From NCBI GenBank assembly GCA_963787125.1, contig CAWBBV010000007.1:64001-128000 (forward strand): a stretch of DNA of 64,000 nucleotides. Direction: 5' to 3'. The notes below the pieces were generated by a model that saw only the letters and a list, made by a program, of their open reading frames with translations, was not told where the DNA came from and did no database searches. The translations under genes were made by a program, and so were the position numbers. Origin of the DNA: an uncultured delta proteobacterium. GTDB taxonomy: Bacteria; Desulfobacterota; Desulfuromonadia; Geobacterales; DSM-12255. Shown here piece by piece: positions 3,741 through 17,607 of this stretch; positions within the stretch are counted from its first letter, which is position 1; the number at the start of each line of letters is the position of its first letter.

Positions 3741-5597
3741 ATGAAAATTGAAACTCTTATGCAGCAAGCCTGTCAAAAGTTTGCCAATAGACCTGCTTTA
3801 AGGCAAAAAGTCGGCGAAGTTTGGCAAGAGACCACCTATGGGCTGCTCTGGACAGCTTCGGACCGGATTGCGGCGGGGCTGGTACGCGAAGGATTCAAGC
3901 CGGGTGAACATGCGGCCATCCTGGCGCCTTCGTCAACGCGCTGGGTTATTGTCTATCTTGGTATCCTTAAAGCCGGTGGCGTAGTGGTGCCGGTGGACAA
4001 GGAGCTTAAAAGCGCTGAATTGCGCCATGTGTTGGGTGACTGCGATGCCAGGGTGCTCTTCACCGATCAGCCCTACCTCGATACAATTCTGGAGATTGCC
4101 GGTGCCTTGCCGCTGCTCGGCAAGATCGTTACCCTGCACCCCTCCAACAGTGAAGGTGGCATTGATCCGCGAATAGCCCGGGCTGTTGAGGCATTGATCG
4201 AAGAGTGGCAAGGTTTTGTAGCCACCACCGGTATCACTCCGGAGCGAGTTTCCCGCCTGGAGACTCTTGCCAGCAGCGTTCATAGGTCGCTGCTTACCTC
4301 CGGTAAAAACAGAACCGAACAGAGCGCGCCTGACGATCTCTTTTCCCGTGCCAGGCTGCTGCGCAAAGATCTGGCCAAGCAAGGCCGGCTTTTCCCTTAT
4401 GAGGCGCTGGAATACGAGGCGCCACTCCCGCCCAACAACCGCACTACTGACGACATCGCTGTCATTCTTTACACCTCCGGCACCACCGGTCGCTCCAAAG
4501 GGGCAATGCTGAGTCACGGCAATATAGTCTCCAATATCCTCGGGACTTCGACACATTTCGGCTTGACTGATACGATCCATACCCTCTCGTTTCTGCCGAT
4601 AAATCACGTCTTTGAACAGGTCTGCGGTGTTTTTACCCCCCTGTCGCTTGGTGGTAAAGTTTCGTTTTGCGAATCACTCAAAAAGCTCGGCGAGAATCTT
4701 AAAGAGGTGCAACCAACCTTTTTCCTCGGTGTTCCGGCTGTCTATCGCATGCTTTTTGATCGGATCATGAAGAACATCGGCGCTAAAACCATCTCCCAGC
4801 TCCTTTTTTCTTTTCCCATCACCCGGCCGCTCATTACTGCCAAAATCAGGCAGACTTTCGGCTCCGGCACTATTTTTATCAGCGGTGGTGCGGCTCTCGA
4901 TCCGGCTATTGCCTCAGGCCTCACGACCCTTGGTTTTAAAATCTATCAAGGATATGGAATCACCGAGACAGCACCGGTTGTCAGCGCCGAATCTCCTGGT
5001 CGCCAATGTGTCGGCACTGTTGGTCATACGCTCCCCGGGGTGGAGATCCGTATCGACGATCCGAACGAAGAAGGGATCGGCGAAATGATTGTCAAAGGGC
5101 CGAATGTCATGCACGGCTATTACAAAAATCCTCTGGCTACCGCCGAAGTGTTGACAGATGGCTGGTATCGTACCGGTGACCTTGGTCGCATCGACAGTTC
5201 GGGCTACGTTACCATCTGTGGTCGGGTGAAAAACCTGATTGTCACTCCCAACGGCAAGAATGTTTATCCTGAAGAAGTTGAGATTGAACTGCTCAAGAGC
5301 CGCTTCATTGCCGAGGTAATGGTTTACGGTCATAAGGTGGGTGCTGCCGAGGACGTGCACGCGATTATCTACCCGAATCAGGAAGCAATGGATGACTACA
5401 TCCGCAGTAAAGACGCAGCTCCAATGACGGTTGCCGATGTTCAGGCGCTTATTCGTACAGAGGTTCATGCCGCCTGCAACAGCCTGGCCGACTACAAGCG
5501 GATCAAGAAGTTCACGATCCGCGAGGATGAATTCCCCAAGACGACAACTCGCAAGATCAAGCGGTTTGAAGTCGGGGCGACTGTTTCGATGCATTAG
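3741..5597 (+). CDS. fadD: Long-chain fatty acid-CoA ligase (AMP-binding enzyme)
   Basis: YTSGTTGRSKG, QGYGITET, GWYRTGDLG, GRVKNLI, PKTTTRKIKR motifs. Confidence 0.9.
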   Translation: MKIETLMQQACQKFANRPALRQKVGEVWQETTYGLLWTASDRIAAGLVREGFKPGEHAAILAPSSTRWVIVYLGILKAGGVVVPVDKELKSAELRHVLGDCDARVLFTDQPYLDTILEIAGALPLLGKIVTLHPSNSEGGIDPRIARAVEALIEEWQGFVATTGITPERVSRLETLASSVHRSLLTSGKNRTEQSAPDDLFSRARLLRKDLAKQGRLFPYEALEYEAPLPPNNRTTDDIAVILYTSGTTGRSKGAMLSHGNIVSNILGTSTHFGLTDTIHTLSFLPINHVFEQVCGVFTPLSLGGKVSFCESLKKLGENLKEVQPTFFLGVPAVYRMLFDRIMKNIGAKTISQLLFSFPITRPLITAKIRQTFGSGTIFISGGAALDPAIASGLTTLGFKIYQGYGITETAPVVSAESPGRQCVGTVGHTLPGVEIRIDDPNEEGIGEMIVKGPNVMHGYYKNPLATAEVLTDGWYRTGDLGRIDSSGYVTICGRVKNLIVTPNGKNVYPEEVEIELLKSRFIAEVMVYGHKVGAAEDVHAIIYPNQEAMDDYIRSKDAAPMTVADVQALIRTEVHAACNSLADYKRIKKFTIREDEFPKTTTRKIKRFEVGATVSMH

Positions 5598-5639
5598 GGT
5601 CCGGCTTTTCTGATATCTGCAGTGAGACCGCCGGGGTTT

Positions 5640-6662
5640 TTAGAAGCTCTGGCGGTCTTTTGTCTGATGACTTATCTTATAACGCTCTCCAAGTCTCTGA
5701 GCCAGTTCCGCAAACTCTTGCCGTAAAGCTTGCGGGGCATGAACTTCCACTCTGTCACCGAAACCCCGTAACCACCAGCGCAGCTGCAATGAATCGTCAA
5801 CCGTTGCCGTCACTTCGAAACTGCCATCCTCTCGTCCATCGATTGTCTGATTCGCTGCAATCGGAGCCTCTGCAAGTCTCTGTATGTCGGCAGCCCGCTC
5901 AAATCTGACTCTCAGGCAAATCTTGCCACCAAGTGGAAACTTCATCTCTCTGGCAATATAATCGTCCAGATTGAAGCCTTGCGGCAGAGTCACTGTTTTA
6001 TCCAACAAGATAACGTTTTTGATCCGGTGCAGTAGCAGCAGTACCGGGTCAGCGTGCTCATTCAGCGAAGCAACCAGATAGGTCAAGCCTTCCACGAAGA
6101 CCATCCCCAACGGATTTACTTCATGCTCCTTGTTCTTCCCGCCAACTGTCCGATATTTCGCAATAAAACGCCGCTCTTCTAAGAGAGCCGTATACACAGA
6201 CTCGGAAATCTCTTCAGGAACTTGCGGTGGAATAATTGCGAGGTTGCGTGATACCACCTTCACTTTGTCAGGCCAGCGGGAAAGACTTGAATCACTGCAC
6301 TGTTTCAGGCGCTCATCTGCACTTTTGATATACGGCTTGAGTGCCGTCAGGACCCCGTGGGGCAGCATCTGGCCGACATGTTTTTCCGCCAGTTTGAAGG
6401 TAAGCGCTGCCACAGGATCCATGTTGGGAATATCGAAAGCTGCAGCGTCCTTGCTCCAACTCCAGCCTGCCGGGCGGTTGTTGTCACGACTCAGGGGAAA
6501 TAGTCTGGAAAGCTCATTCAGGTCACGCTGAATGGTTCGAATATCAGGTGCAACGCCATCATCCGACTGTAGTCGGTCAAGAATGTCTTTAGTTGAAATG
6601 CGTCTGTGGCGAGAGAACATGCGCAGAATTAACCATTGGCGGTAGATTGTTTCCATTATCAT
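5640..6662 (-). CDS. WYL-domain transcriptional regulator (wHTH-WYL-WCX; BrxR/CapW/DriD-like)
   Basis: N-terminal wHTH (DIRTIQRDLNELS), WYL core (VNPLGMVFVEGLTYLVA...LLHRI), C-terminal WCX (LRWWLRGFGDRVEVHAPQALR). Confidence 0.93.
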   Translation of the reverse strand: MIMETIYRQWLILRMFSRHRRISTKDILDRLQSDDGVAPDIRTIQRDLNELSRLFPLSRDNNRPAGWSWSKDAAAFDIPNMDPVAALTFKLAEKHVGQMLPHGVLTALKPYIKSADERLKQCSDSSLSRWPDKVKVVSRNLAIIPPQVPEEISESVYTALLEERRFIAKYRTVGGKNKEHEVNPLGMVFVEGLTYLVASLNEHADPVLLLLHRIKNVILLDKTVTLPQGFNLDDYIAREMKFPLGGKICLRVRFERAADIQRLAEAPIAANQTIDGREDGSFEVTATVDDSLQLRWWLRGFGDRVEVHAPQALRQEFAELAQRLGERYKISHQTKDRQSF

Positions 6663-6685
6663 AACTCCATAGTGATGTTTTTAGG

Positions 6686-6717
6686 CGACGTATTATGTCG
6701 TTTTATTGGAGTATATT
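6686..6717 (+). promoter_or_regulatory. Putative WYL-regulator site CGAC-N7-GTCG plus -10 (TATATT) 11 bp downstream
   Basis: CGAC 6686-6689, GTCG 6697-6700, TATATT 6712-6717; the same geometry recurs at 19475-19506. Confidence 0.65.
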
Positions 6718-6921
6718 GAATAAAACCGGATTTGCAACGACTATCATTATCAGCAAAAAGGACCTGGTAAATGTCCAGACATGAATCCATGGGTGAACGG
6801 AAGAACTGTTTTTTTGAATGCTAATGAAAGCAAATCAAGTTAGAAAGGATCACAGAATAATGACCCTCAGCAGAGTTATCATACCGGATGTAAAAAACTA
6901 CAGCACCAAAGGGGAGAGACT

Positions 6922-7617
6922 ATGCAACTAACTGACGATGAAATGCTTCTTTTACAGCAGGCCTGCGATAAGCTGGATGACGGTGGAGATTATAGAGGGA
7001 AGAATTTCATTGATAACCTGATGATCACCGTACTTGATTTTCAGATGAATGTAAAAACCGTGAAAAAAGCACGCTATTACTTTATGGAGAAATATCCTGC
7101 CATAATAGAAAATCACGACAGTTCACTCCCTGAGCTTAAGCGCATTCTTGAAAAATATCCCGACAGCAGAGAAGACAACCTGGAGCTGGCCCATGATCTC
7201 TGGGATAACAACCACTGGTCGCGGGCTAAATTTCTCCGCAAACTGATAGAATGCCTTGAGGACAGAGGCGTACATGACCAGGCAACTCTTGTGGCATGGG
7301 CGAAGAGCGCTGACTTTGAAGAAGAGGTAAAAGGACAAATTAAAACCGAAGAACACAGCATGGGGATCGCAATCTTCAAATGGTTACAACTGCGCTGTGG
7401 CGTTGATACCGTGAAGCCGGATGTTCATATCCTCAATTTTATCCATAAAGCTGTCGGTCGAAAAGTTACCCCTGAAGTTGCTGTTGAGGTTTTGGAGAAA
7501 ATTGCCGAAAACTCAAACCGTAAACCAAATTTACTGGATGCGGCGATTTGGAAACTGGGGAGGGATACTCCGAGGAAAAAGAAGAAAAAACGGAAGAGCC
7601 CGAAGAAAAAACGGTAG
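6922..7617 (+). CDS. Hypothetical protein resembling HhH-GPD superfamily DNA glycosylases
   Basis: MGIAIFKWLQLRCGVDTVKPDVHI (degenerate HhH followed by K-P-D-x-H) and C-terminal LLDAAIW; GGGGAG RBS; polybasic tail. Confidence 0.55.
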   Translation: MQLTDDEMLLLQQACDKLDDGGDYRGKNFIDNLMITVLDFQMNVKTVKKARYYFMEKYPAIIENHDSSLPELKRILEKYPDSREDNLELAHDLWDNNHWSRAKFLRKLIECLEDRGVHDQATLVAWAKSADFEEEVKGQIKTEEHSMGIAIFKWLQLRCGVDTVKPDVHILNFIHKAVGRKVTPEVAVEVLEKIAENSNRKPNLLDAAIWKLGRDTPRKKKKKRKSPKKKR

Positions 7618-7654
7618 ACTTGCACTGAAGCAGTTCGATTTGGGCTGGGTTAAT

Positions 7655-7706
7655 AAGAGTCAGGGTGACGCGGCGTGGCAGGCCACAGCATCACCCTGAC
7701 TCTTTT
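7655..7706. terminator. Hairpin between convergent genes, likely intrinsic terminator
   Basis: AAGAGTCAGGGTGA (7655-7668) / TCACCCTGACTCTT (7691-7704) inverted repeat ending in a T run. Confidence 0.65.
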
Positions 7707-7733
7707 CATTCTATGAGCTGCGCTGTTATCGCG

Positions 7734-8519
7734 TTAAACTTCCACCCAGGACGCTGCATCACAGATTTGGAAAACCTTGCCATCCTGCACATGGCAGACA
7801 CCTGCCCAGCCTGCACTTCTTCTTGGCGACATCTCTTCACCAGCCCGGACCGGCACCTTTGCCTGGCGGAATAACGACTCAAGAAAGCTTAAAAAACCGG
7901 CCCCGAAGCCGAATGGCACAACATACACAGAACGCATGAAACCATTGCCGAAATTGCACGATTCTGTGCGCCATTTCCAGATTGTCGCCGGCCCACGGAG
8001 CCCTTTGTCCGCAAGCCACTGTTGCGCCGCAAGGAACATAGTGTCTTCAAAAGAGCCGATATAAGGGAGTCTGTCGACATTCACCTCAAGGCTGGGGAAT
8101 GTGCCTTGTTCCATAACCATGGCAGGAGTCGGAATTTCAACCTTTTCGGGCTCTTCCATGTCGACCTCTTCGGGCTCCTCCACCGGAGCAGTGGCCACTA
8201 TCGGCTCAACCAGTACGACAGTAGCCGCTGGGGCGGTAGTTCTTGTTCTGCGCTGCCGAAAGTTTTTCAGATGTTTTCCGCCGTTGACCTGATTCCCCTC
8301 TCCATCAAAAGCGACAAGCGCAAAGTCCGGATAATTGGGGGTAAAGCGGACTTTTATCCAGGCCGCCAGTGTCAGCGAACCGTCAGCAGCCTTGGTGAAG
8401 GGGTAGTCGCTAAAGCCGCCCTTATCTGCTCTGACCTTATTTCCCGCTGCATTATAAAGTTTTACGCTGAAGCGCTCTACCTGTTCAATCTGCTGTTCCA
8501 GTTCCCGGCATGTACCCAT
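7734..8519 (-). CDS. Hypothetical two-domain protein (261 aa), in frame with an upstream start-less copy of the hsdS 3' end
   Basis: GGAGG RBS 9 nt before ATG 8519 (MGTCRELEQQI); the frame stays open upstream through a low-complexity linker into HsdS C-terminal sequence. Confidence 0.7.
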   Translation of the reverse strand: MGTCRELEQQIEQVERFSVKLYNAAGNKVRADKGGFSDYPFTKAADGSLTLAAWIKVRFTPNYPDFALVAFDGEGNQVNGGKHLKNFRQRRTRTTAPAATVVLVEPIVATAPVEEPEEVDMEEPEKVEIPTPAMVMEQGTFPSLEVNVDRLPYIGSFEDTMFLAAQQWLADKGLRGPATIWKWRTESCNFGNGFMRSVYVVPFGFGAGFLSFLESLFRQAKVPVRAGEEMSPRRSAGWAGVCHVQDGKVFQICDAASWVEV

Positions 8520-8675
8520 GATTGTTTTCCTCCCTGGTTGTACTGCTGCAGGTGCAGCAGCTGTCGATTCCGGCGCTGAAGTTTTCTGCTCCGCCGGTTG
8601 CAGCTGATCCGGCTCAGCCTGCTTTGGCAAGCTACCCTTCTTCCCCGAAGATATCTTAATTGTCCGACCTGATTT

Positions 8676-8864
8676 GATCCGCTCCAGCAGCACCGCCGCC
8701 GGTTCGTCGCTGGGGTTCTGGGGCACCAATTCACCGCGAAAAGCCTTGGCGAGGATGGATTGGGTGAGCTTGTCTACGTGGGTCTTGGCGGTCCGGTAGC
8801 GGGCTTCCAGTTGGTCGGCCAGGGTGAAGAAGGATTCGACCCGGCGGACGATTTCTTGTTGTTC
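8676..8864. repeat. Direct repeat copy A: duplicate of the hsdS 3' conserved region (189 bp)
   Basis: Aligns without gaps to 10694-10882; 13 mismatches by manual count. Confidence 0.95.
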
Positions 8865-8883
8865 GGGGAGAAAGTATAATTGA

Positions 8884-9447
8884 TCAACCCGGAAACACTT
8901 CTTTGAACAACCGCTTGTAATCGGCCTTGAATTCCTTGGGGCGGTCGTTCTGGTAGATCAAATACCCGGCAATCTCCCGCACCTTGGCCATTTCGATATG
9001 ACCACATTCCAGCATCAACCTCAGCAAATCTAGCGTCTTGAACGTTTTGACATCAAAATCATTTGCCAGCGCCAGCATATCGGTATCGTCAGTGACAACC
9101 GGCAATCCAATAACGTAGGCATGGGCAAGCACAGTGACATCCACCCGCGACACCGTGGGGTATGCAGTTCTCTTGTGGTCAAACATGAAGTCGAACGCCT
9201 GCTCGATTTCATTTCTCTCTTGCTTGGATAGTTGCACACGGTGTGAGCGGTTTTCTGTGTATTCCGGGTCATTAACCCATGGAAACTTGTTTCGCAGGCG
9301 GGGACTTTTGTTGTACTCGTCCTGTAGCTCCTTGATTACATACAGGCAGTAGGGCGGTGCGCCGAACTCCGTTTTGAGCAGGGGGCGGATGCTTTGCGCC
9401 AGGCGGAAATAGGTGTTGGTATCGACAAGGATCTTACTTTGCGCCAC
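8884..9447 (-). CDS. PIN-domain protein (putative RNase toxin) paired with ImmA/IrrE protein
   Basis: KILVDTN N-terminal PIN motif, E, D and VVTDD acidic residues; GTG start overlaps the upstream gene. Confidence 0.75.
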   Translation of the reverse strand: MAQSKILVDTNTYFRLAQSIRPLLKTEFGAPPYCLYVIKELQDEYNKSPRLRNKFPWVNDPEYTENRSHRVQLSKQERNEIEQAFDFMFDHKRTAYPTVSRVDVTVLAHAYVIGLPVVTDDTDMLALANDFDVKTFKTLDLLRLMLECGHIEMAKVREIAGYLIYQNDRPKEFKADYKRLFKEVFPG

Positions 9448-10579
9448 TGCAAAGCTCCTCATATACGTTCTGGGCGTCTATGAATGGTATATTGAGGATG
9501 CTTTGGACAAAACTTGCGGGTTTATGACCCGTGTTCAGGTAATTCCTGAGAATATCGAAGAATGGGCTTTTAAAGGTTTCTTTGGCGCAGGCAATATAGC
9601 GGGATGATGGCGGCTCTTTGGTAGCAAAGAGAATTTCGCTTACCGGCTTGAACATTTTATTGAAATTTATAGTCGCCTTATGGATTTCTTTGTCCGAGTC
9701 GAGATCGATCCTTTCCGTCCCCTTGAACTCGGCGTACTTGTTGATTTCGTAGTAAACCGTTAGCGGCGACACAACAAGCTTGGCGGCGGTCTCCTTGATG
9801 CGGTTGATCTGCTGGCCGATGTTGCTCGTGTTCCGTAACGCCTCGTACTCCCTGGCTGCCAGCTCCTGGGGAATCAGCAGCGCCCCGGCAAACGCCTCGG
9901 CAAAATCCTCCCCATCGTCGCCCTGCAGTTGCGGAGCGAGAACGTGGCCCAATTCATGGGACATCCAGAACTTGAAATCATGCAGACGGCAATCGAGGTT
10001 AAGGTAAATCCAGGTTGACAGCGACTCGGGCAAATGGATATGGAGGGCGTTTTCATGCTTGTCCTTGTGCGCCCAGAGCACCGGTACAAGAACAGCATGG
10101 AGTTTGCCAAAGAAATCGATCAATTTCTCAAAGTGGATTTCGCCACCTTCAAGCACACCGATCTCTTCCCGTACCCGCCGGGCGGCCTTGTGTACGTACT
10201 CGTAGTCGCTCACCGGTTTGCGGAGCGTTGCCGGCTGGACCTGGTCGTCGAAGGGAAGAAATGGAACAAGCGCTTCAAGAATGCGCCCCATATCCTTTGC
10301 CTGTTCCACATATTCCGGGGTTATCTTGTGCGCCCCCTTTTTGCGGAAAGCGACAACCGGCTCGTTCGGTTCCGGGAGCTTGATGACCAGATCCGAGAAA
10401 GACAAGGCGAGCAGACGCGCCAGCTTCAGGAGCTTGTCCGGGCGAGGGTACTTATCCTGTTTGAACCATTGAGAGACGGTTTCGCGGGAAACGTCCAGGG
10501 CTTTGGCAATGGAGGATTGGTTGAGGCCGAGAGCTTCAGCCTGCTGAGACAACTTTTCAATGTTGAGTGTGTTTGTCAT
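9434..10579 (-). CDS. XRE HTH + ImmA/IrrE (DUF955/COG2856) metallopeptidase
   Basis: LNQSSIAKALDVSRETVSQW HTH; FWMSHELGHVL (HExxH) and EDFAEAFAGALLIP motifs. Confidence 0.9.
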   Translation of the reverse strand: MTNTLNIEKLSQQAEALGLNQSSIAKALDVSRETVSQWFKQDKYPRPDKLLKLARLLALSFSDLVIKLPEPNEPVVAFRKKGAHKITPEYVEQAKDMGRILEALVPFLPFDDQVQPATLRKPVSDYEYVHKAARRVREEIGVLEGGEIHFEKLIDFFGKLHAVLVPVLWAHKDKHENALHIHLPESLSTWIYLNLDCRLHDFKFWMSHELGHVLAPQLQGDDGEDFAEAFAGALLIPQELAAREYEALRNTSNIGQQINRIKETAAKLVVSPLTVYYEINKYAEFKGTERIDLDSDKEIHKATINFNKMFKPVSEILFATKEPPSSRYIACAKETFKSPFFDILRNYLNTGHKPASFVQSILNIPFIDAQNVYEELCSGAK

Positions 10580-10627
10580 GGGTAACCTGTATACAACATT
10601 GTCAACTTTTGTCAACTACAGTATACG
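10580..10627 (-). promoter_or_regulatory. Sigma70-like promoter/operator of the ImmA-PIN pair
   Basis: Minus strand has tandem TTGACA-aaag-TTGACA, then TATACA, flanked by two GTATAC palindromes, just before ATG 10579 (possibly near-leaderless). Confidence 0.5.
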
Positions 10628-10639
10628 TTTTTTACGTTT

Positions 10640-11974
10640 TTAGTGCCGGACTTTTTTGGTCTTTGCTGGTGTGGTCTTGGCCCGCTCTGCCCGGATACGC
10701 TCCAGCAGCACCGCCGCCGGTTCATCGCTGGGGTCCTGGGGCACCAATTCGCCACGGAAGGCCTTGGCGAGGATGGATTGGGTCAGCTTGTCTACGTGGG
10801 TCTTGGCCGTCCGGTAGCGGGCTTCCAGCTGATCGGCCAGGGTGAAGAAGGATTCGACGCGACGGACGATTTCTTGTTGTTCCTCTGGAGAGACAATCGG
10901 GAATTCGAGCGATCCAACGACTTGCTGATTCAGATTCGTCATCGTACTGCCGACGGAACCCTCTTCAAGGAAGGCACAAGTATAGGGGCTTCGCAGCAGT
11001 AAGCAGAGAAAGTCGGGAACAACATTTTTGCTGGTTGCCCGTAGGATAAGCGACCCGGTCCCACACATAAGACCAGGAGCGCGAACCACTGCAGCTCGTC
11101 CCATTTCACCCCTTCGGCCGAGAACAATATCTCCCGGTCGCAGTACATATCGAGTAAGTTCCTTCATTTTGGTTTCAGAGACGCTTTGATCTGCATTGGG
11201 AAATATTTGACCTTCCCGAATATGCATGGGGTTGATTAAAGGGACTCCGTTCGATACGTAGTCATGCTTGTGAAGTGCACTGCCGAAAGGTCCTGTTTGA
11301 ACGGAAACATCTTGCTTTGAAAGCGTGGACCATTCCCATTCTTCAACCTTGTTTTCCTCCCTCCAATCCGCCGTCAGCCGCCCGGAGCAGGCAGCGGCCA
11401 GCACCGCCTGGCGGAAGCGCTTGAGGATGACCGGAATCTTCGCCAGCCGCTGCTGGCTGGTGTCCACCTTGGCGAGCACCTCTTCCAGTTTGGCGACGAT
11501 GCGGCGTTGTTCGTTGAGGGGGGGGAGCGGGATTGGATGCCTTCTAACAATTTCCTGACTGATGTTAGGTTGTGCACCCCCTTGTCCAAGCTCAATAAAT
11601 GTCTGTCTTTCGGAGAATAAATAGAAAAAAGCATATTTTTCTGCAACGAGATTTTCGTTCGGGATTAGATTGGCGCAGGCTTGATTTGTCGCAGCAGGGA
11701 AAGTCATGATGCCAAGCTTGCCAATCGTAGCACCGTAGAGCGCCATGGAGATTGTCCCGGCAGGCAGCATTTTTGCTGATGAACTTTTGAGGCCGCTTTC
11801 GGTGATTTCTTCGTCCGTCTTTAGAATCAGGCCATCGGGCAAATCACCACTTTTTACCCATGGGATGCCTTTCCCGAAATACTCGGGTTTGCTACGCGAG
11901 GGGGTTCCCCCGCTGCACCAACTTCCAATTTCAGCGAGTGCAGTATTAACCCACCCCTGCAGTAATTCACTCAT
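10640..11974 (-). CDS. hsdS: Type I restriction-modification specificity subunit
   Basis: Two target recognition domains (GGTPSR...; QTGPFGS...) each followed by a conserved region (PLPPLNEQRRIV; PEEQQEIVRRV...LAKAFRGEL). Confidence 0.96.
   Translation of the reverse strand: MSELLQGWVNTALAEIGSWCSGGTPSRSKPEYFGKGIPWVKSGDLPDGLILKTDEEITESGLKSSSAKMLPAGTISMALYGATIGKLGIMTFPAATNQACANLIPNENLVAEKYAFFYLFSERQTFIELGQGGAQPNISQEIVRRHPIPLPPLNEQRRIVAKLEEVLAKVDTSQQRLAKIPVILKRFRQAVLAAACSGRLTADWREENKVEEWEWSTLSKQDVSVQTGPFGSALHKHDYVSNGVPLINPMHIREGQIFPNADQSVSETKMKELTRYVLRPGDIVLGRRGEMGRAAVVRAPGLMCGTGSLILRATSKNVVPDFLCLLLRSPYTCAFLEEGSVGSTMTNLNQQVVGSLEFPIVSPEEQQEIVRRVESFFTLADQLEARYRTAKTHVDKLTQSILAKAFRGELVPQDPSDEPAAVLLERIRAERAKTTPAKTKKVRH
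10694..10882. repeat. Direct repeat copy B (3' conserved region of hsdS)
   Basis: Matches 8676-8864 at an offset of 2018 bp. Confidence 0.95.
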
Positions 11975-11987
11975 CTATCTTCACGCC

Positions 11988-12068
11988 TTTCTTTGCGCCC
12001 TTTGCGTCTTTGCGGTAAAAAGATTCTAAAGACTTCGAACCGCGAAGACGCAAAGATCGCCAAGGAAA
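11988..12068. repeat. REP-like intergenic inverted repeat built from CTTTGCG-type units
   Basis: CTTTGCGTCTTTGCGGT (12000-12016) / ACCGCGAAGACGCAAAG (12039-12055), one mismatch, with imperfect extensions. Confidence 0.75.
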
Positions 12069-12075
12069 CAAAAAT

Positions 12076-12378
12076 CTATTCTGATTCGCTCAGTTGGACC
12101 GAATCATCCAACAATTGCCTGCCATGCCGCACGGTCAGAATGTGAATGTCATCCGTCACCTTATAGATAACTCGATAGTTGCCATAAATCAGCTCACGAA
12201 TATCTGAGCGTTTCAGTTCCGGGACAACCCGGCAGCTCAGGGGTTGCTCCGGCAATCCACCCACCGTTTCGAACAGCTTTTTTACCCATTTTTCAGCGGC
12301 AGAAGGCTTGTCTCTGGCAATATAGCGGGCAATATCCCGCACGCGTTCCAGAGCCAAGGGCGACCAGACGACCTTCAT
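12076..12378 (-). CDS. RelE/ParE family toxin
   Basis: MKVVWSPLA...IARYIARDKPSAA...RELIYGNYRVIY...ILTVRHGRQ. Confidence 0.92.
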   Translation of the reverse strand: MKVVWSPLALERVRDIARYIARDKPSAAEKWVKKLFETVGGLPEQPLSCRVVPELKRSDIRELIYGNYRVIYKVTDDIHILTVRHGRQLLDDSVQLSESE

Positions 12379-12656
12379 TGCGCAATACCCGCGAGAATGT
12401 GCGTCAGAGCCTCATCATGGCTTAGTCCATTGCCTGACGCCAATTGACGTTCCGCCGCATGAACGTCCTGCAGCAATTCAAGCTGCTCCAATAGTTCCTC
12501 ATATTTCGCTACATCAAGCAGCACCGCAGCACTGCGGCCATGATTGGTGATGACAAGTGGCCGGTGAGTAGTCTGTACCTGTTTTATGAAACCGGTTACA
12601 TTGCCGCGAAACGTTGACAAGGGCTGAATATCGTTAACCAGCGAAAGTTGCGCCAT
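12375..12656 (-). CDS. Phd/YefM family antitoxin
   Basis: DIQPLSTFR...RPLVITNHGRSAAVLLDV..YE; ATGA overlap with the toxin gene. Confidence 0.92.
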   Translation of the reverse strand: MAQLSLVNDIQPLSTFRGNVTGFIKQVQTTHRPLVITNHGRSAAVLLDVAKYEELLEQLELLQDVHAAERQLASGNGLSHDEALTHILAGIAQ

Positions 12657-12721: not shown

Positions 12722-14176
12722 TCAAACCTCCGCCCCCTCTTCCCGCTCAATCAGCCGGATGATCTCCCGCAGATCATCCACCACCGCCTCCAGCTCGGTG
12801 ATCGCCTCGGCGGCCAGATCCTGGGGTTCGGGGAGTTCGTTGCCGTCCTCAAGCGATTCGTCCTTCAACCAGGTGATATCCAGCTTGTAGTCGCGCCCCT
12901 TGATATCGGCCAGGGTGAAGGGGCGGAAACGGCCCGTTTCGCCGCCATCAGTGCGGGGTGAGCGGCCATTGGGGTCTTTGCCGTAGGCAGCGTCAAACTC
13001 GGCAAAGTGCTGGGCTGAAAGGGGCCGGTCCTTCTTGGTGATGCCGGGAACGTTGGAACGGGCGTCGAAAATCCAGACGTCTTTAGTCGGCAGACCTTTC
13101 TGGAAGAAGATGACATTGGCCTTGACCCCCTGGCTGTAGGGGGTGAAGGTGCCGCGGGGGAGGCGCAGCACCGTGTGCAGGTTGCAGTCCTGCATGAGGA
13201 TTTCGAAGACTTCGCCGGCCTTCCCTTCGAAGAGGCAGTTGTCCGGCAGGACCATGGCGGCCCGGCCGCCGGGCTTCAGGGTGTTGACCACGTGCTGGAC
13301 AAAGTTGAGCTGTTTGTTGCTGGTCTCGATGGTGAAGTCTTCCCGGTCCGGCGCCTGATTGGCTCCCTTGGTGCCGAAGGGGGGATTGGTGAGAATGACG
13401 TCAAACTTGTCGGCACCGGGGGGCTCATAAATGGTGTCACCCAGCCGAATCTGCGGCTCCACGTTGTGCAAGTAGAGGTTCATCAGCGCCAGCCGCCGCG
13501 GCCGGGCCACCAGGTCCTGGCCGTAGTAAGTAGAGGTGCGAATCCGCTTGGCATCGGCCCGGTCAAAGGCCCCTTTGGTCTTCTCAAAGAGCCATTCATA
13601 AGCGCAGACCAGAAAACCGCCGGTACCGCAGGCCGGGTCGCAGATTTTAAAGTCGGCCTTGCCCCGCGGATCGGGCTGCATCACCCGGACGATGGACTGA
13701 ATGAGCACGCGAGGAGTGAAATACTGCCCCGCCCCTTTCTTCCCTTCACTGGCGGCCTTCTCCAGCAGCCCCTCGAAAGCGGCCCCCTTCACATCCACAT
13801 CCAGACCGGTCCACTCTTCATCATCAATCAGGCCGATGATCTTTTTCAGGCTGACCGGGCTATTGAACTGGTTCTTGGACTGGGCAAAGATATCCCCCAG
13901 CATCCCCTGCTGACTGCTCAGGGCACGGAGCACTTCGGAGAAATGGTACAGCACCGCCGTGCCGGACTTGTTCCGCAGAGCGGCCCAGCTGCAGTCAGTG
14001 ACGATCTTCTCGTGCTTCTCGTTGACCCAGGAGATGGCGTGCAGCTCAATCCCTTTTTCATCGGACATCTTGAGAAACAGCAGGTAGGTGAGCTGCTCAA
14101 TATAATCGCCATAATCGATGCCGTCATGGCGCATCTGGTGGCAGAAGCCCCAGAGTTTGTTGACAATGTCTGACAT
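12722..14176 (-). CDS. hsdM: Type I restriction-modification N6-adenine methyltransferase
   Basis: GQYFTPR, DPACGTGGFL, NPPF motifs; start placed at MSDIVNKLW (14176). Confidence 0.96.
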   Translation of the reverse strand: MSDIVNKLWGFCHQMRHDGIDYGDYIEQLTYLLFLKMSDEKGIELHAISWVNEKHEKIVTDCSWAALRNKSGTAVLYHFSEVLRALSSQQGMLGDIFAQSKNQFNSPVSLKKIIGLIDDEEWTGLDVDVKGAAFEGLLEKAASEGKKGAGQYFTPRVLIQSIVRVMQPDPRGKADFKICDPACGTGGFLVCAYEWLFEKTKGAFDRADAKRIRTSTYYGQDLVARPRRLALMNLYLHNVEPQIRLGDTIYEPPGADKFDVILTNPPFGTKGANQAPDREDFTIETSNKQLNFVQHVVNTLKPGGRAAMVLPDNCLFEGKAGEVFEILMQDCNLHTVLRLPRGTFTPYSQGVKANVIFFQKGLPTKDVWIFDARSNVPGITKKDRPLSAQHFAEFDAAYGKDPNGRSPRTDGGETGRFRPFTLADIKGRDYKLDITWLKDESLEDGNELPEPQDLAAEAITELEAVVDDLREIIRLIEREEGAEV

Positions 14177-14189
14177 TGGGTTTCCTGTG

Positions 14190-14609
14190 TTATGAGTTGA
14201 ATTGAGCCAGAAACTCTTCTGCGGTGCAGGTTGTGATTGTCGCCGCACGAAAATCCTTTCGATTACGGGTAACAATGACAGGCAGGCTATTTTCTAGAGC
14301 GGTATAGTACTGAATTGCATCCTCAAAATCGCTGAAATTAGAATCAAGTGCCTTGGCAATGACAGTGTCGTCAACAGGCAGTATAGGCACAAGCTTGCGC
14401 AGATTTTTTAATGCTTCAACCGCCTTATGTGAGCCTATGGATTTACGCAGTACGTAATGGAGGTTTGCATAGGTCAGCGAAGAGGCACAAGCCTCAACCT
14501 TTCCTTTGTCAATCGCGGAAAAAAGGGCAGCAGCTTGGAAGTAAAACGGTTCGCGTCGACAGAAAAGATCAAGAAAAATATTGGTGTCGATGAATATGCG
14601 CTGTTTCAT
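14190..14609 (-). CDS. PIN-domain (VapC-like) toxin
   Basis: IFIDTNIFLD...DFEDAIQYYTA...IVTRNRKDF. Confidence 0.92.
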   Translation of the reverse strand: MKQRIFIDTNIFLDLFCRREPFYFQAAALFSAIDKGKVEACASSLTYANLHYVLRKSIGSHKAVEALKNLRKLVPILPVDDTVIAKALDSNFSDFEDAIQYYTALENSLPVIVTRNRKDFRAATITTCTAEEFLAQFNS

Positions 14610-14851
14610 CGGTATTTTTTCTCAAGATAGTCAGTGTACTCTTCCCTGAAATTATCAGCAGCATCAGGAGGCAGGATACCGGAAAGACTTGCCACTATCG
14701 GCGTGATTTCTTCCGTTGAACTATCTTTGCGCACAACCAGTTTCAGATAGTTTTCCACCATATTGGAAAGGCTTCGATGCTGCTGGCGCGCATATTCCTT
14801 GGCCTGTTCGATCACATCGCTTTCAATGCTCAAGGTCAGTTTGGTCTGCAT
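14606..14851 (-). CDS. RHH-type antitoxin (DUF6364-like)
   Basis: TKLTLSIE..VIEQAKEYA....SLSNMVENYL; ATGA overlap with the PIN gene. Confidence 0.85.
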   Translation of the reverse strand: MQTKLTLSIESDVIEQAKEYARQQHRSLSNMVENYLKLVVRKDSSTEEITPIVASLSGILPPDAADNFREEYTDYLEKKYR

Positions 14852-14904: not shown

Positions 14905-17607
14905 TTACACCGCTACCGCCTCATTAAACCGCTTCACCAGCACTTCCAACTTACCGCTAAACTCCCGGTTCGCCCGCCCCCAACCCCCGGCATGGGAAAA
15001 GACAGGCATATCATCAAAATCATCCCGGCTAATGGAGAGGTTCTGCACCAGATGCACCCGCACCCGTTCCAGCCATTCCAGCTGCTGCGGGGTAAACGTC
15101 TGCCCGCCGGTGATCCGCATCATGGCCCGCTGTACCCGCTCCTGGGCGGTGAACAGCTCTTTCTCCGCCGCTGCCGCATGCTGCACCATGGAGATAATGT
15201 CGGCCATGGCCTTGTGATAGGTCAGCTCATGGGCCTTCTGCAGCCGCTCTTCGTTGAAGCGGAGTGACGCAGCTGCCAGCTTGCTGCGCAGTTCGGTCAG
15301 GGCGGCCACATTCCAGTCAGCCGGCCGATCGAGCAGGATCTGCACTGCCTCGATATCGCTTTTATGCTCCCGGATGTAGTTGGCAAAGGCCGTCAGATAG
15401 TCCGCCGGCTTGTATTCGTTCCCTTCGTTATCCCGAATCAGCCAGACGCTCTCCACCTGATCTTCCACCTCATACCCTTTGAGAAAAGTCCGCTCCGGGC
15501 GTTTGTAATTAACCAAAAGGTCCTGGAAACCGGGATTGCGCAGCAGTTCCATGGTGGCGGCGAAGCGGCTCTTGAGGTTCTGCGGCAGTTCGTCGGCATA
15601 GCGGGCCAGGTCGCCGCAAGCAATGAAGGCGCTGAAATCGGTACGGGATTCGCCGCTCATCTCCTTGTCGATCCGCTGCAGCCGCTTGACCAGACAGCGG
15701 CTGTTATACTCCCGATCCCTGTTCTGCCAGATATCCTCGATGATCTCGATGATTGTGCGGGTCTTGGGAGCCGGTTTCATGGCGGTAATAGCGGTGGCGC
15801 TGCGGAAGAACTCCAACAGGGTGCCATCGAAGCAGTCAAAGACGGTGAAGTGGGACTTGTCCGGGTATTTCTCCCCCTTGCGGGTGCCGCGGCCGAGCAT
15901 CTGCTCGAAGAGGATGCGGGACTTGACCTGGCGCAGGAAAACGATGAACTCCAGATCGGGGATATCGACGCCGGTGGTGAGCAGGTCAACAGTGACGGCA
16001 ATGGATGGCTGGGGGCGGTTGCGGAACTCACGAATCCGCTGCAGCGGCCGGTCCACCCGGCCGGTGATCTTGGCGGCAAAGGAATCACCCTTGCCGAAGA
16101 CCTCCCGCGCCAGCTCCACCAGCTGATCGGCATGGGAAGTATGGGGCAGGTCGTTGGCAGCAAAAATCAGCGTCTTCGGGAAACGGCCGTATTTTGCTTC
16201 GTGCTCGGCAGCGTACGTTTTAATTTCTTCCAGAATTTTCCGGTTGGAGCTGGGGACGGTCACCTTGCTTTCCAGTTCCGAAACCTCAAAGCCGCGGTCA
16301 TCTTCCAGATTGTCCAGCTGCTCGGCACCGCTGGCGGTATCCACCAGGCCGACGAGTTCCCCTTCTTTCAGGAAAGCCCCGTTCATCCTGACTTCCGAGC
16401 GGATCGCCACCACATCGTAGTCCACCAGATGCCCTTCACGGATGGCCCGCTCGTATTCGTAACGATAGACCACGTGCTTGAAGAAGGTGGTGGTATGGGC
16501 CGCCGGGGTGGCCGTCAGACCGATCTTGATGGCGTCAAAATGGTCCAGCGTCGCCCGCCAGGTGGCAACCTCCTGAGCGGTGTAGCCGCGGTGGCACTCA
16601 TCGGCAATGATCAGGTCAAAGGCGTGAATCGGGATGTCAAGCTGGCCGGCATCCTCTTCCTCATCCCCTTCGCCGTTGAAAGCGGCATTACGCCCGAAGA
16701 GGTTGATGGTCATCCGCTGAATGGTGCTGATGTAGAGAAAGGCGTCCCCCGGCTTGGGGGCGGTCAGATAGCTGTTGGGAAGCACCTTGGGATCAAACTT
16801 TTCACCCTCTTCGAAATCGCCGGTCTGGAAACGCTGGCTGTAGACTTCATAGATGGCATCGAACTTGTGCCCCGGTTCCGGCTCAAAGGCTGCAAAGGAG
16901 CGGACCGCCTGGGCTGCCAGGGCGCGTCGGTCCACGAGAAACAGCACCCGCAGCGCCACGCCGGACTTCATCAGCCGGTAGACCTGGTTCACCATGGTGA
17001 AGGTCTTGCCGGTACCGGTCGCCATGGCCACCAGCATGTGATGCTGCCGCTCACCGATAGCTTTTTCCACTGCGGTGTTGCACTCCCGCTGGTAGGGGCG
17101 CAGCCGCTGATGGTCGTTCGCCAGCTTCTGCAGGGCACTGCAGGCGGCATCCAGATCCCGGCCCAGCTTTTCCTGTAGGGCTGCGGGGGTGTGAAAGGCG
17201 CTAAGCTGCCGCGAGCGACTGTTTTCGTGGCGAATGTCGTGGTGCCAGATCAGTTCGCCGTTGGTGGAGTAGAGAAAAGGGACATGGTAGGGGCCAAAGG
17301 AAAGGTCACTGCCGCTAACGCCGCGTGAGTAGCGCTGGGCCTGGGTCAGGACGTTCTGCGGACCGAGGGATAGTTTCTTTGCCTCAACAATACCAAGGAT
17401 CGTGCCGTTAACGCAGAGGGCATAGTCAGCCGGGCCGTTATCAGTCGGGTATTCGACAATTGCACAGCCATCATAGGCAGTAAGCGGTTTGGAAGGTTTG
17501 TACGGACAGATCTTCCAGCCAGAGGAGGTAAGTTTCGGATCAACCAGCTTGCGGCGGGTAAGCCATTCCGAGTTGGCAGTGGAAGCGGCTGTTCTGGATG
17601 AAGGCAT
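14905..17607 (-). CDS. hsdR: Type I restriction endonuclease subunit R
   Basis: ADY...IVEAKK nuclease motif, MATGTGKT, DECH, GLTATP, LLTTGVDIP, QMLGRGTR helicase motifs. Confidence 0.96.
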   Translation of the reverse strand: MPSSRTAASTANSEWLTRRKLVDPKLTSSGWKICPYKPSKPLTAYDGCAIVEYPTDNGPADYALCVNGTILGIVEAKKLSLGPQNVLTQAQRYSRGVSGSDLSFGPYHVPFLYSTNGELIWHHDIRHENSRSRQLSAFHTPAALQEKLGRDLDAACSALQKLANDHQRLRPYQRECNTAVEKAIGERQHHMLVAMATGTGKTFTMVNQVYRLMKSGVALRVLFLVDRRALAAQAVRSFAAFEPEPGHKFDAIYEVYSQRFQTGDFEEGEKFDPKVLPNSYLTAPKPGDAFLYISTIQRMTINLFGRNAAFNGEGDEEEDAGQLDIPIHAFDLIIADECHRGYTAQEVATWRATLDHFDAIKIGLTATPAAHTTTFFKHVVYRYEYERAIREGHLVDYDVVAIRSEVRMNGAFLKEGELVGLVDTASGAEQLDNLEDDRGFEVSELESKVTVPSSNRKILEEIKTYAAEHEAKYGRFPKTLIFAANDLPHTSHADQLVELAREVFGKGDSFAAKITGRVDRPLQRIREFRNRPQPSIAVTVDLLTTGVDIPDLEFIVFLRQVKSRILFEQMLGRGTRKGEKYPDKSHFTVFDCFDGTLLEFFRSATAITAMKPAPKTRTIIEIIEDIWQNRDREYNSRCLVKRLQRIDKEMSGESRTDFSAFIACGDLARYADELPQNLKSRFAATMELLRNPGFQDLLVNYKRPERTFLKGYEVEDQVESVWLIRDNEGNEYKPADYLTAFANYIREHKSDIEAVQILLDRPADWNVAALTELRSKLAAASLRFNEERLQKAHELTYHKAMADIISMVQHAAAAEKELFTAQERVQRAMMRITGGQTFTPQQLEWLERVRVHLVQNLSISRDDFDDMPVFSHAGGWGRANREFSGKLEVLVKRFNEAVAV

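Follow-up and report, generated by a model that had tools for sequence, protein, structure and literature searches.

The DNA stretch analysed in the current work (64,000 nucleotides, hereafter the window) contains a type I restriction-modification (R-M) operon in which hsdR, hsdM and hsdS are all present and intact, with Pfam and NCBIfam matches covering their full lengths (Table 1). A VapB/VapC-like pair is wedged between hsdR and hsdM, in an interval (14190-14851) that is non-homologous in a same-genus genome (G006). The live hsdS gene, designated allele B, specifies two target-recognition domains followed by a short tail, RAERAKTTPAKTKKVRH. Together these genes constitute a predicted hsdRMS(B) system accompanied by three toxin-antitoxin (TA)-like modules, being VapBC, Phd/ParE and RmrA/PIN. 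None of the 12 ORFs scanned between 5640 and 17607 contains a recombinase, integrase or transposase domain, and the 231-aa gene returned no match in Pfam, NCBIfam or PADLOC. A homologue of the WYL/WCX regulator is located directly after hsdS in relative G147 (L115 synteny).

Table 1 Features of the type I R-M operon and the region downstream of hsdS (positions within the window).
Feature	Position	Strand	Remarks
WYL/WCX regulator	5640-6662	-	Pfam, PADLOC
Gene of 231 aa	6922-7617	+	ORF in window; lysine-rich tail
Independent gene (predicted), 261 aa	7734-8519	-	Two domains (1-90, ~120-261); GGGAGG 9 nt before ATG
hsdS allele A relic	8529-8871 (about)	-	~2 codons (LP), CR2 (copy A, 8676-8864), 49-codon linker ending AVQPGR; truncated on both sides, no start codon; homology to other hsdS begins at 8871-8874
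Spacer after PIN stop, 14 nt	8870-8883	-	Homology to L084 reaches 8870; cassette end
PIN-like putative toxin	8884-9462	-	187-192 aa family; 217 homologues, some with precomputed PF01850
RmrA-like antitoxin/regulator, 393 aa	9434-10615	-	HTH + ImmA/IrrE M78 peptidase
Intact hsdS allele B, 444 aa	10640-11974	-	Pfam Methylase_S (2 stretches); NCBIfam PRK09737 over residues 4-439
Repeat copy B	10694-10882	-	C-terminal conserved region (CR2) of live hsdS
ParE toxin	12076-12378	-	Pfam; hsdM-hsdS gap
Phd/YefM antitoxin	12375-12656	-	Pfam; hsdM-hsdS gap
hsdM methyltransferase	12722-14275	-	Pfam N6_Mtase, HsdM_N
VapC-like, PIN_3	14190-14609	-	Pfam
VapB-like, DUF6364	14606-14851	-	Pfam
hsdR, 900 aa	14905-17607	-	Pfam ResIII, EcoEI_R_C, HSDR_N; 91% nt identity to G006 (same genus)

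The C-terminal conserved region (CR2) of hsdS is present twice, as direct repeats of 189 nt that are 93% identical and form a single family in a repeat search, copy A being located 2018 nt downstream of copy B on the same strand, with the RmrA-like and PIN-like genes between them and no further copy in the 4.2-Mb genome. An independent recount of the mismatches yielded 13, of which 12 are third-position changes synonymous in the HsdS frame and one is an AAC/GAC (N/D) replacement, so that the coordinates and counts given in the first-pass annotation are exact; nine of the 13 are transitions. Considering that 25% of the possible single-base changes are synonymous, at least 12 synonymous changes out of 13 would be expected with P ~6e-7 under neutrality, and with P ~0.02 if just one copy were constrained. 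Over the same 189 nt the distance of the CR2 alleles in relatives to A and B amounts to 16-22 nt and 2-5 aa, in agreement with the earlier suggestion that copy A came from a functional hsdS allele (or long behaved as one). The 13-nt distance between A and B is smaller than that of either to any sampled allele and both carry four derived states, one of them a unique Ser codon, a pattern that duplication in situ or gene conversion would explain as well as an allelic origin would.

It is extremely improbable that this arrangement is an assembly artefact joining the hsdS ends of two strains. The genome is a 30-contig draft, the best sequencing run covers a fraction of 0.10 of the stretch, and the sequenced pieces leave the PIN/copy-A junction uncovered; however, a mis-join at a common repeat would leave a single copy, not two with 1.8 kb of unique DNA between them, and contamination amounts to 0.52%. 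Four pieces from run X1 are without differences from 7600-11400, all of them lying outside the junctions.

Copy A commences at most 2 codons ahead of CR2 and 14 nt past the PIN stop codon, at a junction where the only overlap is short and ambiguous (CTTTC/TC), and its relic is devoid of a recognition domain. The copy-A frame is open from 8957 to 7734 (407 codons), running stop-free into the ATG at 8519, and contains no ATG, GTG or TTG upstream of the TTG at 8729, which confirms the previous description of copy A as start-less at its 5’ end, with that TTG as first possible start, and in frame with the protein encoded at 8519-7734. Beyond the shared LLERI motif the two tails are unrelated, tail B starting with RAERAKTT and tail A corresponding to a linker that aligns with long-tailed HsdS proteins up to A-x-QPGR, where the alignment ends; homology of this linker is weak outside the QPGR motif, and a search of the rest of the window detected no remnant of the missing end domain of the long tail. 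The most plausible view of the open linker is that it once formed the tail of a long-tailed HsdS and was severed behind QPGR, and copy A is, as judged from these alignments, the start-less relic of a second hsdS allele of the long-tailed class. When the linker is read as such, only the in-frame ATG remains to be explained, being a 1-in-3 chance event.

These two tail classes bear on the possibility of an insertion with long target duplication, whereby entry of the cassette at the hsdS end would have duplicated 189 nt of the resident gene, the copies subsequently diverging and being partly homogenised by gene conversion. Such integrase-free insertions are known for R-M gene complexes (Furuta, Abe & Kobayashi 2010, PMC2853133, citing Nobusato et al. 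2000), where direct repeats of 30-420 bp, some ~93% identical, are described, and the mutual closeness of A and B with their common derived states is in line with this scenario. The locus resembles these cases in its integrase-free insert, its long direct repeats and its addiction-type cargo, but differs in that its copies diverge almost only synonymously and continue into a short basic tail and a long-tail linker, respectively; a duplicated target would have its downstream sequence once only, but two different hsdS tail classes are not expected from it. In appearance the copies are two alleles and not the product of duplicating one target, and target duplication is considered quite improbable. 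No empty-site relative was found, relatives G006, G066 and G147 each carrying one CR2 with flanks that differ from those of the window.

The first-pass annotation had proposed that recombination between the copies generates a switchable HsdS C-terminal fusion. Its arithmetic, being a 2018-nt circle and a recombined HsdS of 427 + 313 = 740 aa, holds, and the copy-A frame is indeed open into the 261-aa gene; in addition, HsdS proteins of the long-tailed type occur, as do natural HsdS C-terminal fusions in the same family, for example a 1142-aa protein combining Methylase_S with AAA_15/AAA_21 (L110). The fusion itself was not recovered. Homologues of the 261-aa protein (P0002 and P0007) are stand-alone and align with it from residue 1, and a homologue search with this protein returned 208 matches, among the best 150 of which Methylase_S is absent from the 16 that measure at least 303 aa. 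Likewise, no HsdS carrying the domain was found among the best 120 of 8000 scored candidates, all of which are at most 616 aa, and the domain is absent from the 60 relatives examined. The AlphaFold model of the 261-aa protein has a pLDDT of 89.8 and a best VIA Z of 6.0, without a PDB match at a Foldseek E of 0.001 or below. The gene looks independent, and its annotation should be that of a gene in its own right instead of an extension of HsdS. A programmed or selected switch, in which recombination would reversibly drop the TA cassette, produce the 740-aa fusion and alter R-M behaviour, is very unlikely on these grounds, the more so as no recombinase gene was seen and as a circle lacking a replicon cannot re-insert reliably, so that the event would be one-way.

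The first-pass alternative, in which a +1 frameshift where the PIN gene ends would lead to translation of copy A and to a PIN-CR2-261-aa fusion, is hardly credible at all. The frame relation is correct, copy A lying in +1 relative to the PIN gene, with 24 open codons ahead of the PIN stop; against this, GGT TGA T represents neither a slippery nor an RF2-like motif, the PIN C-terminus is complete in comparison with 187-aa homologues, and CR2 occurs behind PIN in none of the five close relatives with downstream DNA.

The RmrA-like protein encoded between the repeats matches Pfam HTH_3 (E 8.9e-10) and Peptidase_M78 (E 9.6e-06), as well as the RmrA models of PADLOC (best E 7.5e-13), and its gene adjoins the PIN-like gene in 78 of 80 loci from genomes and in 22 of 24 from metagenomes; the four exceptions are located at contig edges. 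RosmerTA systems comprise an RmrA protease-type antitoxin and diverse RmrT toxins (Ernits et al. 2023, PMC10440598). The pair in the window shares with them an HTH + ImmA/M78 protein accompanied by a small putative toxin gene, in a pairing that is conserved across phyla, but its PIN-like partner matches none of the PADLOC RmrT models. The cassette may represent a RosmerTA-like defence or addiction module.

In all four close relatives with upstream DNA (L004, L025, L084 and L085), CR2 precedes the RmrA-like gene. The block formed by CR2, short tail, RmrA and PIN is contiguous in L025 (91.7% nt identity, matching window positions 10903-9140) and in L085 (80.9%, matching 10882-8880); the tails of L025 and L084 are orphans that lack an hsdS body, the L084 insert separating yajQ from rimO, a pair that is contiguous in G009 and G021. 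Of the close RmrA-PIN relatives, five (L004, L084, L085, L086 and L087) have 489 nt or more of downstream DNA, and in none of them is PIN followed by a second tail, which makes the right-hand junction unique to the genome of the window. A search for other cassettes between duplicated hsdS tails, as had been suggested, retrieved locus L146 of G466 (same phylum), in which hsdS is followed by an AAA ATPase gene (NsnB/AriA-like) with a 154-aa gene, tail 2 (commencing 13 nt past the preceding stop codon), HEC-01 A+B and tail 3. This array is an independent instance of the succession hsdS-cassette-tail-cassette-tail. Orphan tails are furthermore situated immediately ahead of an HTH/M78 + DUF4411 pair (L148) and of an AAA_21 + RloB pair (L150). 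Collectively, these loci support the earlier idea that the conserved hsdS 3’ region is a recurrent edge of defence cassettes. Among the 92 distinct genomes with a CR2 match (49/239 and 45/401, two being shared), clear cases of a cassette between tails are confined to the window and G466, while G107 and G614 carry hsdM between their tails. Relic boundaries vary, G107 retaining at least 23 recognition-domain residues and several relics being 5’-truncated inside CR2; five relics (window copy A, L146 tail 2, L084, L025 and L148) have their start between 0 and, at most, 18 codons ahead of CR2, and the stop codon of an unrelated gene lies 13-64 nt upstream.

The best reading of these observations, and one that we regard as somewhat on the probable side, is that hsdS underwent a “C-terminal displacement” of the Rhs type through homologous recombination. 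An hsdS gene of another allele (A, of the long-tailed class) would formerly have ended at the present relic site, and the incoming unit would have consisted of an hsdS CR2 segment, the short tail and the RmrA-like/PIN-like pair, joined to the specificity gene through recombination within or at CR2, the conserved stretch of 189 nt. As a consequence, the live hsdS would end in CR2(B) with the short tail, CR2(A) and the tail formerly attached to the gene would have been pushed downstream as a silent start-less relic, and the locus would represent a type I R-M operon with defence modules stacked onto it. The recombination route (a circle and a single crossover) and the order of events are those that we infer. 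RecA-type recombination between the present copies could release the cassette as a 2018-nt circle, yet only as a by-product, and loss of the cassette would be opposed by the addiction effect of losing the TA pair. Points against displacement are the unique right-hand junction, the few clear cases of a cassette between tails, the non-uniform relic boundaries, the weak linker homology outside QPGR and the fact that A and B are nearest to each other. Furthermore, neither a circle nor a deletion junction nor a donor was observed, the contigs of four runs displaying no joints in the parts that they cover, which lie outside the junctions.

Some of these points would equally be met by a one-off scar in which CR2 homology played no role, either through decay of a second full hsdS once located downstream of the cassette or because a segment with hsdS(B), RmrA and PIN entered and took the place of the greater part of hsdS(A), the recombination being illegitimate, with or without facilitation by homology. 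In this scenario the deletion would have stopped beside CR2 by chance. The downstream copy is unique relative to the five close relatives, the junction overlap is short and ambiguous, multi-hsdS type I loci occur (e.g. G107), and the relic is also cut on its 3’ side after QPGR, from which it follows that the region underwent other rearrangements. However, the clustering of five relic starts just ahead of CR2 is hard to obtain from random deletion ends in a 6-kb operon, and arrays separated by tails recur, for which reason we consider a one-off scar unlikely, albeit deserving of some weight. Returning to C-terminal displacement, a tentative and rather doubtful extension is that CR2 of hsdS acts as a recombinase-free attachment site, whereby CR2-tail-cassette units would circularise between two CR2 copies and re-enter a related hsdS by a RecA-dependent single crossover.

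The question addressed by this locus is how defence islands grow without dedicated integrases, and its duplicated hsdS end is best seen, on present sequence comparisons, as a scar of defence genes stacking behind an R-M operon rather than as a built-in switch. Should recombination recurrently be anchored at the conserved hsdS end, type I R-M operons would be landing pads besides being defence genes, and new cassettes could be added without breaking the specificity gene; orphan tails would then be datable scars that give the order of acquisition, as well as search handles for new defence cassettes. If the attachment-site extension is true, HsdS would stay intact while older units are pushed downstream, providing a general route for defence-island accretion behind type I R-M operons and accounting for the orphan tails located ahead of cassettes at unrelated sites.

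Defence genes embedded in type I R-M loci have precedents, as PrrC is reportedly found within EcoprrI, and RloA/RloB-type “restriction-linked” genes (Pfam PF13707) are embedded in or abut such loci. The similarity is that hsd operons harbour cassettes of TA-like and ATPase type, the window having three TA-like modules, but the descriptions of those loci drawn upon here concern gene content and are silent about a duplicated hsdS tail that would mark an insertion. Phase-variable hsdS shufflons, as outlined by Atack et al. 2020 (PMC7394358), likewise display a partial hsdS beside a live hsdS and recombination in conserved regions, with inverted repeats, alternative target-recognition domains and usually a recombinase; the locus does not match this type of system, as its repeats are direct, its relic is without recognition domain and no recombinase was seen in the 12 ORFs.

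The closest likeness is to rhs loci, for which Jackson et al. 2009 (PMC2935791) proposed that a single crossover of a circular intermediate displaces the attached tip without deletion. In that account start-less fragments lie behind an intact gene, each with a piece of the conserved region and an older, different 3’ tip, while new tips bring a core fragment and no integrase is involved. The gene concerned here is instead hsdS and the conserved piece is a 63-codon CR2 helix, the “tip” being a short non-essential tail together with whole defence cassettes (RmrA/PIN, or the ATPase pairs of L146) rather than a toxin domain with its immunity gene, and HsdS function is predicted to be unchanged by the swap. 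A silent downstream fragment on the same strand, a different 3’ tip and, at another locus (L146), serial fragments are all found, as in rhs-type arrays, and the orphan CT/immunity arrays at cdiA/rhs loci are likewise among the closest known counterparts.

The hsd locus lies as a whole on the minus strand, in the order hsdR, a VapBC-like pair, hsdM, a Phd/ParE pair, hsdS, an RmrA-like gene, a PIN-like gene, copy A (a downstream, start-less relic of hsdS) and a 261-aa ORF, with copy B being located within the intact hsdS. In a genome of the same genus (G006), hsdR and hsdM are 91-92% identical to those of the window, yet the gaps holding the Phd/ParE and DUF6364/PIN_3 pairs are without homologous DNA. 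Between parE and hsdS, close to the start of the latter, there is an inverted repeat that could represent an operator or a terminator. The WYL/WCX regulator gene has a counterpart directly after hsdS in genome G147 (locus L115; 67% nucleotide identity), and in the window three elements intervene between the two, namely the relic together with the 261-aa gene and a lysine-tailed gene of 231 aa.

Features of the hsd locus and its surroundings (window coordinates)
Feature	Position	Strand	Remark
hsdR	14905-17607	minus	
DUF6364/PIN_3 pair	14190-14851	minus	VapBC-like; between hsdR and hsdM
hsdM	12722-14275	minus	
Phd/ParE pair	12076-12656	minus	between hsdM and hsdS
Inverted repeat	11988-12067		29-nt arms, 83% complementary, 22-nt loop
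hsdS	10640-11974	minus	intact, two-domain, 444 aa
Copy B	10694-10882	minus	within hsdS
RmrA-like gene	9434-10615	minus	HTH_3 + Peptidase_M78; matches PADLOC RmrA models
PIN-like gene	8884-9462	minus	
Copy A	8676-8864	minus	relic
261-aa ORF	7734-8519	minus	
WYL/WCX regulator gene	5640-6662		

A repeat search of the window retrieved a single 189-nt direct-repeat family, the two members of which (copies A and B) are 93% identical, are spaced 2018 nt apart and are the only two copies in the genome. Manual counting reproduced the 13 mismatches reported by the first-pass annotation, 12 of these being third-position changes that are synonymous in the HsdS frame and one being an AAC/GAC (N/D) difference. 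Only one quarter of the possible single-base changes in the repeat is synonymous, so that the occurrence of at least 12 synonymous changes among 13 has a P of ~6e-7 under neutrality and of ~0.02 if one copy evolved freely. When compared over the same 189 nt with G006, with genome G066 and with the orphan tail of locus L025, copies A and B differ by 16-22 nt and 2-5 residues, which is a distance typical of alleles and shows the same bias towards synonymous changes, and this supports the proposal that copy A was derived from another functional hsdS allele. The two copies are nearest each other (13 nt) and have four derived states in common, one being a Ser codon absent from the other sampled alleles; the copies have probably undergone partial gene conversion or share a common origin, either of which would also explain why the relic has not decayed.

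The homology of copy A to other hsdS genes begins at 8871-8874, approximately two codons (L-P) ahead of the first codon of CR2, the 63-codon conserved C-terminal region of HsdS. The start of the relic thus coincides with the border where the variable recognition domain gives way to CR2. The 14 nt from the PIN stop codon to this start are homologous to the post-PIN sequence of L084, a metagenome locus. As had been claimed, copy A is devoid of a 5' start codon (the first being a TTG at 8729) and its frame, open for 407 codons from 8957, runs without a stop into the 261-aa protein and through to 7734. Beyond the residues LLERI the two copies diverge wholly, with copy B continuing into a basic tail of 17 residues that ends in a stop codon, and copy A into a 49-codon low-complexity stretch. 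An alignment anchored on CR2 matches this stretch to the tails of long-tailed HsdS proteins (L004 of Geobacter hydrogenophilus, P0312, P0382, P0308 and P0346) up to the motif A-(M/V)-QPGR, the similarity being weak outside the motif. These long-tailed proteins (the first encoded at L004:4077-5831) carry after CR2 a low-complexity linker of ~50 residues and a conserved end domain of ~50 residues (AMQPGRDYSRA...RGARY), for which no Pfam match was found; following QPGR, the window instead encodes K-T-I and then the ATG at 8519. No remnant of the missing end domain was found by tblastn in the window below E 0.04, nor any near 5000-9000. Most simply, and with moderate confidence, the "linker" of copy A would be the true tail of a former hsdS allele (A) that was cut a second time after QPGR, which would explain the absence of a stop codon from the linker and would leave only the in-frame ATG, a 1-in-3 event, to chance.

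The uninterrupted frame had also been taken to indicate a switchable fusion, and the arithmetic of that proposal holds: recombination between the copies would release a circle of 2018 nt and join 427 and 313 residues into an HsdS of 740 aa. The two copies as they now stand could, mechanically, recombine and excise the cassette; this would remove an addiction-type pair, and the product would be one-way. Among nine sequencing runs compared with the window by word content, the best share was 0.10 and no RNA run was found to contain the window; the contigs of four runs showed no joints and contained only four short pieces identical to the window, all away from the junctions. When 1.84 billion representatives were searched exhaustively by profile, 208 matches to the 261-aa protein were obtained, the best 150 of which include no HsdS fused to this domain; among the matches listed, Methylase_S was found by Pfam scan in none of the 16 of at least 303 aa. 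Longer proteins containing CR2 or linker words were likewise scored, and the best 120 of 8000 were all ordinary HsdS of at most 616 aa, none being fused to the 261-aa domain. The 261-aa protein was not found in the genomes of 60 relatives. These searches do not support the switchable fusion, and translation of copy A by a +1 shift from the PIN gene, offered as an alternative, is not supported either.

The 261-aa protein consists of two modules (residues 1-90 and ~120-261), each of which is also found alone, and alignments starting at residue 1 are obtained with the full-length homologues P0002 (253 aa) and P0007 (285 aa) and with dozens of 90-aa proteins. The sequence GGGAGG, whose bases also specify the P-G-R codons of the relic, is located 9 nt before its ATG. 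On this evidence the ORF is read as a separate gene. Its N-terminal 90-residue module is widely found by itself as a small protein, is repeated 22 times in one protein of 1327 aa and 11 times in another of 2403 aa (P0006 and P0097), and is also fused to ankyrin repeats, the C-terminal module being found fused to SAP domains. The protein had no match in Pfam, PADLOC, NCBIfam or PHROGs. Its structure is predicted confidently (pLDDT 89.8), and a Foldseek comparison with the PDB returned nothing at E <= 0.001, with the N-terminal domain barely covered by the fold searches; the best VIA-align Z (6.0) corresponds to a generic ferredoxin/ACT-like match of residues ~137-243 only. In G012, a genome of the same family, a single ORF of 1142 aa (L110:3296-6724) combines a complete HsdS (Methylase_S, CR2 and linker) with an AAA_15/AAA_21 ABC-type ATPase, and constitutes a natural fusion of a specificity subunit and a defence ATPase. 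Since natural C-terminal fusions of HsdS occur in the same bacterial family, a past fusion of HsdS(A) to the 261-aa protein is possible.

The PIN-like protein belongs to a well-conserved family of 187 aa. Of 80 genome loci and 24 metagenome loci, 78 and 22, respectively, have an RmrA-like gene directly upstream of it, the four misses lying at contig edges; the flanks of 16 of the 80 genome loci contain a tblastn match to HsdR, HsdM or HsdS of the window. Upstream DNA is available for four close relatives (RmrA 78-95% identical), and each of these carries an hsdS CR2 in front of RmrA. Locus L004 has the order hsdR-hsdM-hsdS (long tail)-RmrA-PIN, and L085 combines a full hsdS, different in its recognition domains, with homology to the window that is unbroken between the first base of CR2 and a point 4 nt beyond the PIN stop codon (10882-8880). 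In L025, 91.7% identical over 10903-9140, hsdS is represented by an orphan tail alone, which follows the 3' end of an unrelated methylase, and the PIN gene is truncated. In L084, a frameshifted orphan tail is found 29 nt after the yajQ stop codon, followed by another HTH/M78 pair, RmrA, PIN and rimO; as yajQ and rimO are adjacent in genomes G009 and G021, L084 carries an insert of 3.6 kb, the left edge of which is the hsdS tail. The additional pair of L084 (2505-3507), a split HTH (124 aa) and Peptidase_M78 (208 aa) between the orphan tail and the fused RmrA-like gene, places two ImmA-type modules side by side. A tail after PIN was found in none of the five relatives with downstream DNA, which counts against a cassette between two tails as the unit. 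The hexamer ACTTTC, shared by both L084 ends and the window junction, was rejected as a crossover core because it is only 6 nt long, was noted post hoc and is missing in L025, and because the L084 borders fall inside replaced gene ends. A promoter as the reason for tails staying before cassettes was also rejected, as a consensus scan of the minus strand at 7738-12200 found none in CR2 or tail.

The 63-residue CR2 was searched in 239 genomes of the order (49 matched, including G000, the genome of the window) and 401 of the phylum (45 matched), which, with G000 and G024 common to both sets, amounts to 92 distinct genomes. Clear cases of a cassette between tails number two of these 92, with several related scars besides. 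In G466 (L146, C298:6500-12769), three hsdS tails in direct order enclose two different cassettes, the order being hsdS, an AAA ATPase (NsnB/AriA-like) with a 154-aa gene, a full CR2 copy beginning 13 nt past the stop codon of the latter, HEC-01 A+B (E 3e-184 and 6e-76) and a third, partial tail. The middle tail of G466 is nearer in sequence to the CR2 start of the window than to that of its own neighbour. A 1.2-kb repeat (tail plus Bro-N gene) flanks hsdM on both sides in G107, and two partial tails surround hsdM and a Schlafen/AlbA gene in G614. Orphan tails directly precede an HTH/M78 + DUF4411 pair in G567 and an AAA_21 + RloB pair in G268, and a similar ATPase + 220-aa pair, judged from ORF sequence only, lies behind one in G432. 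G132 and G510 were discarded as cassette arrays, both being IS-interrupted hsdS genes. In five relics the start lies 0 to at most 18 codons ahead of CR2 and the stop codon of an unrelated gene is found 13-64 nt upstream, which is suggestive of a preference for the recognition-domain/CR2 border; this preference is not uniform, since other relics extend further into the recognition domain or are truncated within CR2. The recurrence in relatives, together with G466, supports the idea that the hsdS tail may serve as a docking site for defence cassettes, in the form of a recurrent process that leaves scars.

In the literature searched, no paper was found that reports hsdS tails as direct repeats enclosing defence cassettes. 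The cassette is a putative addiction-type pair that resembles RosmerTA, defined by RmrA, an antitoxin of the protease type, together with a variety of partner toxins (PMC10440598), on its antitoxin side (HTH_3 + Peptidase_M78), and differs in that none of the PADLOC models matches its PIN partner. Of the two integrase-free patterns on record, "insertion with long target duplication" of restriction-modification genes (Furuta et al. 2010, PMC2853133) fits less well with the allelic differences between copies A and B and with their two different tail classes. The anatomy of the window matches the other, the "C-terminal displacement" proposed for rhs, in which silent fragments, each consisting of a conserved-core piece and an older tip, follow an intact gene, and for which Jackson et al. 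invoke one crossover with a circular intermediate that brings in a core fragment together with a new tip (PMC2935791). A corresponding crossover inside CR2 would restore a complete HsdS, and insertion would thus be costless; the core fragment would here be CR2, and the tip, as compared with rhs, a dispensable tail plus a defence cassette.
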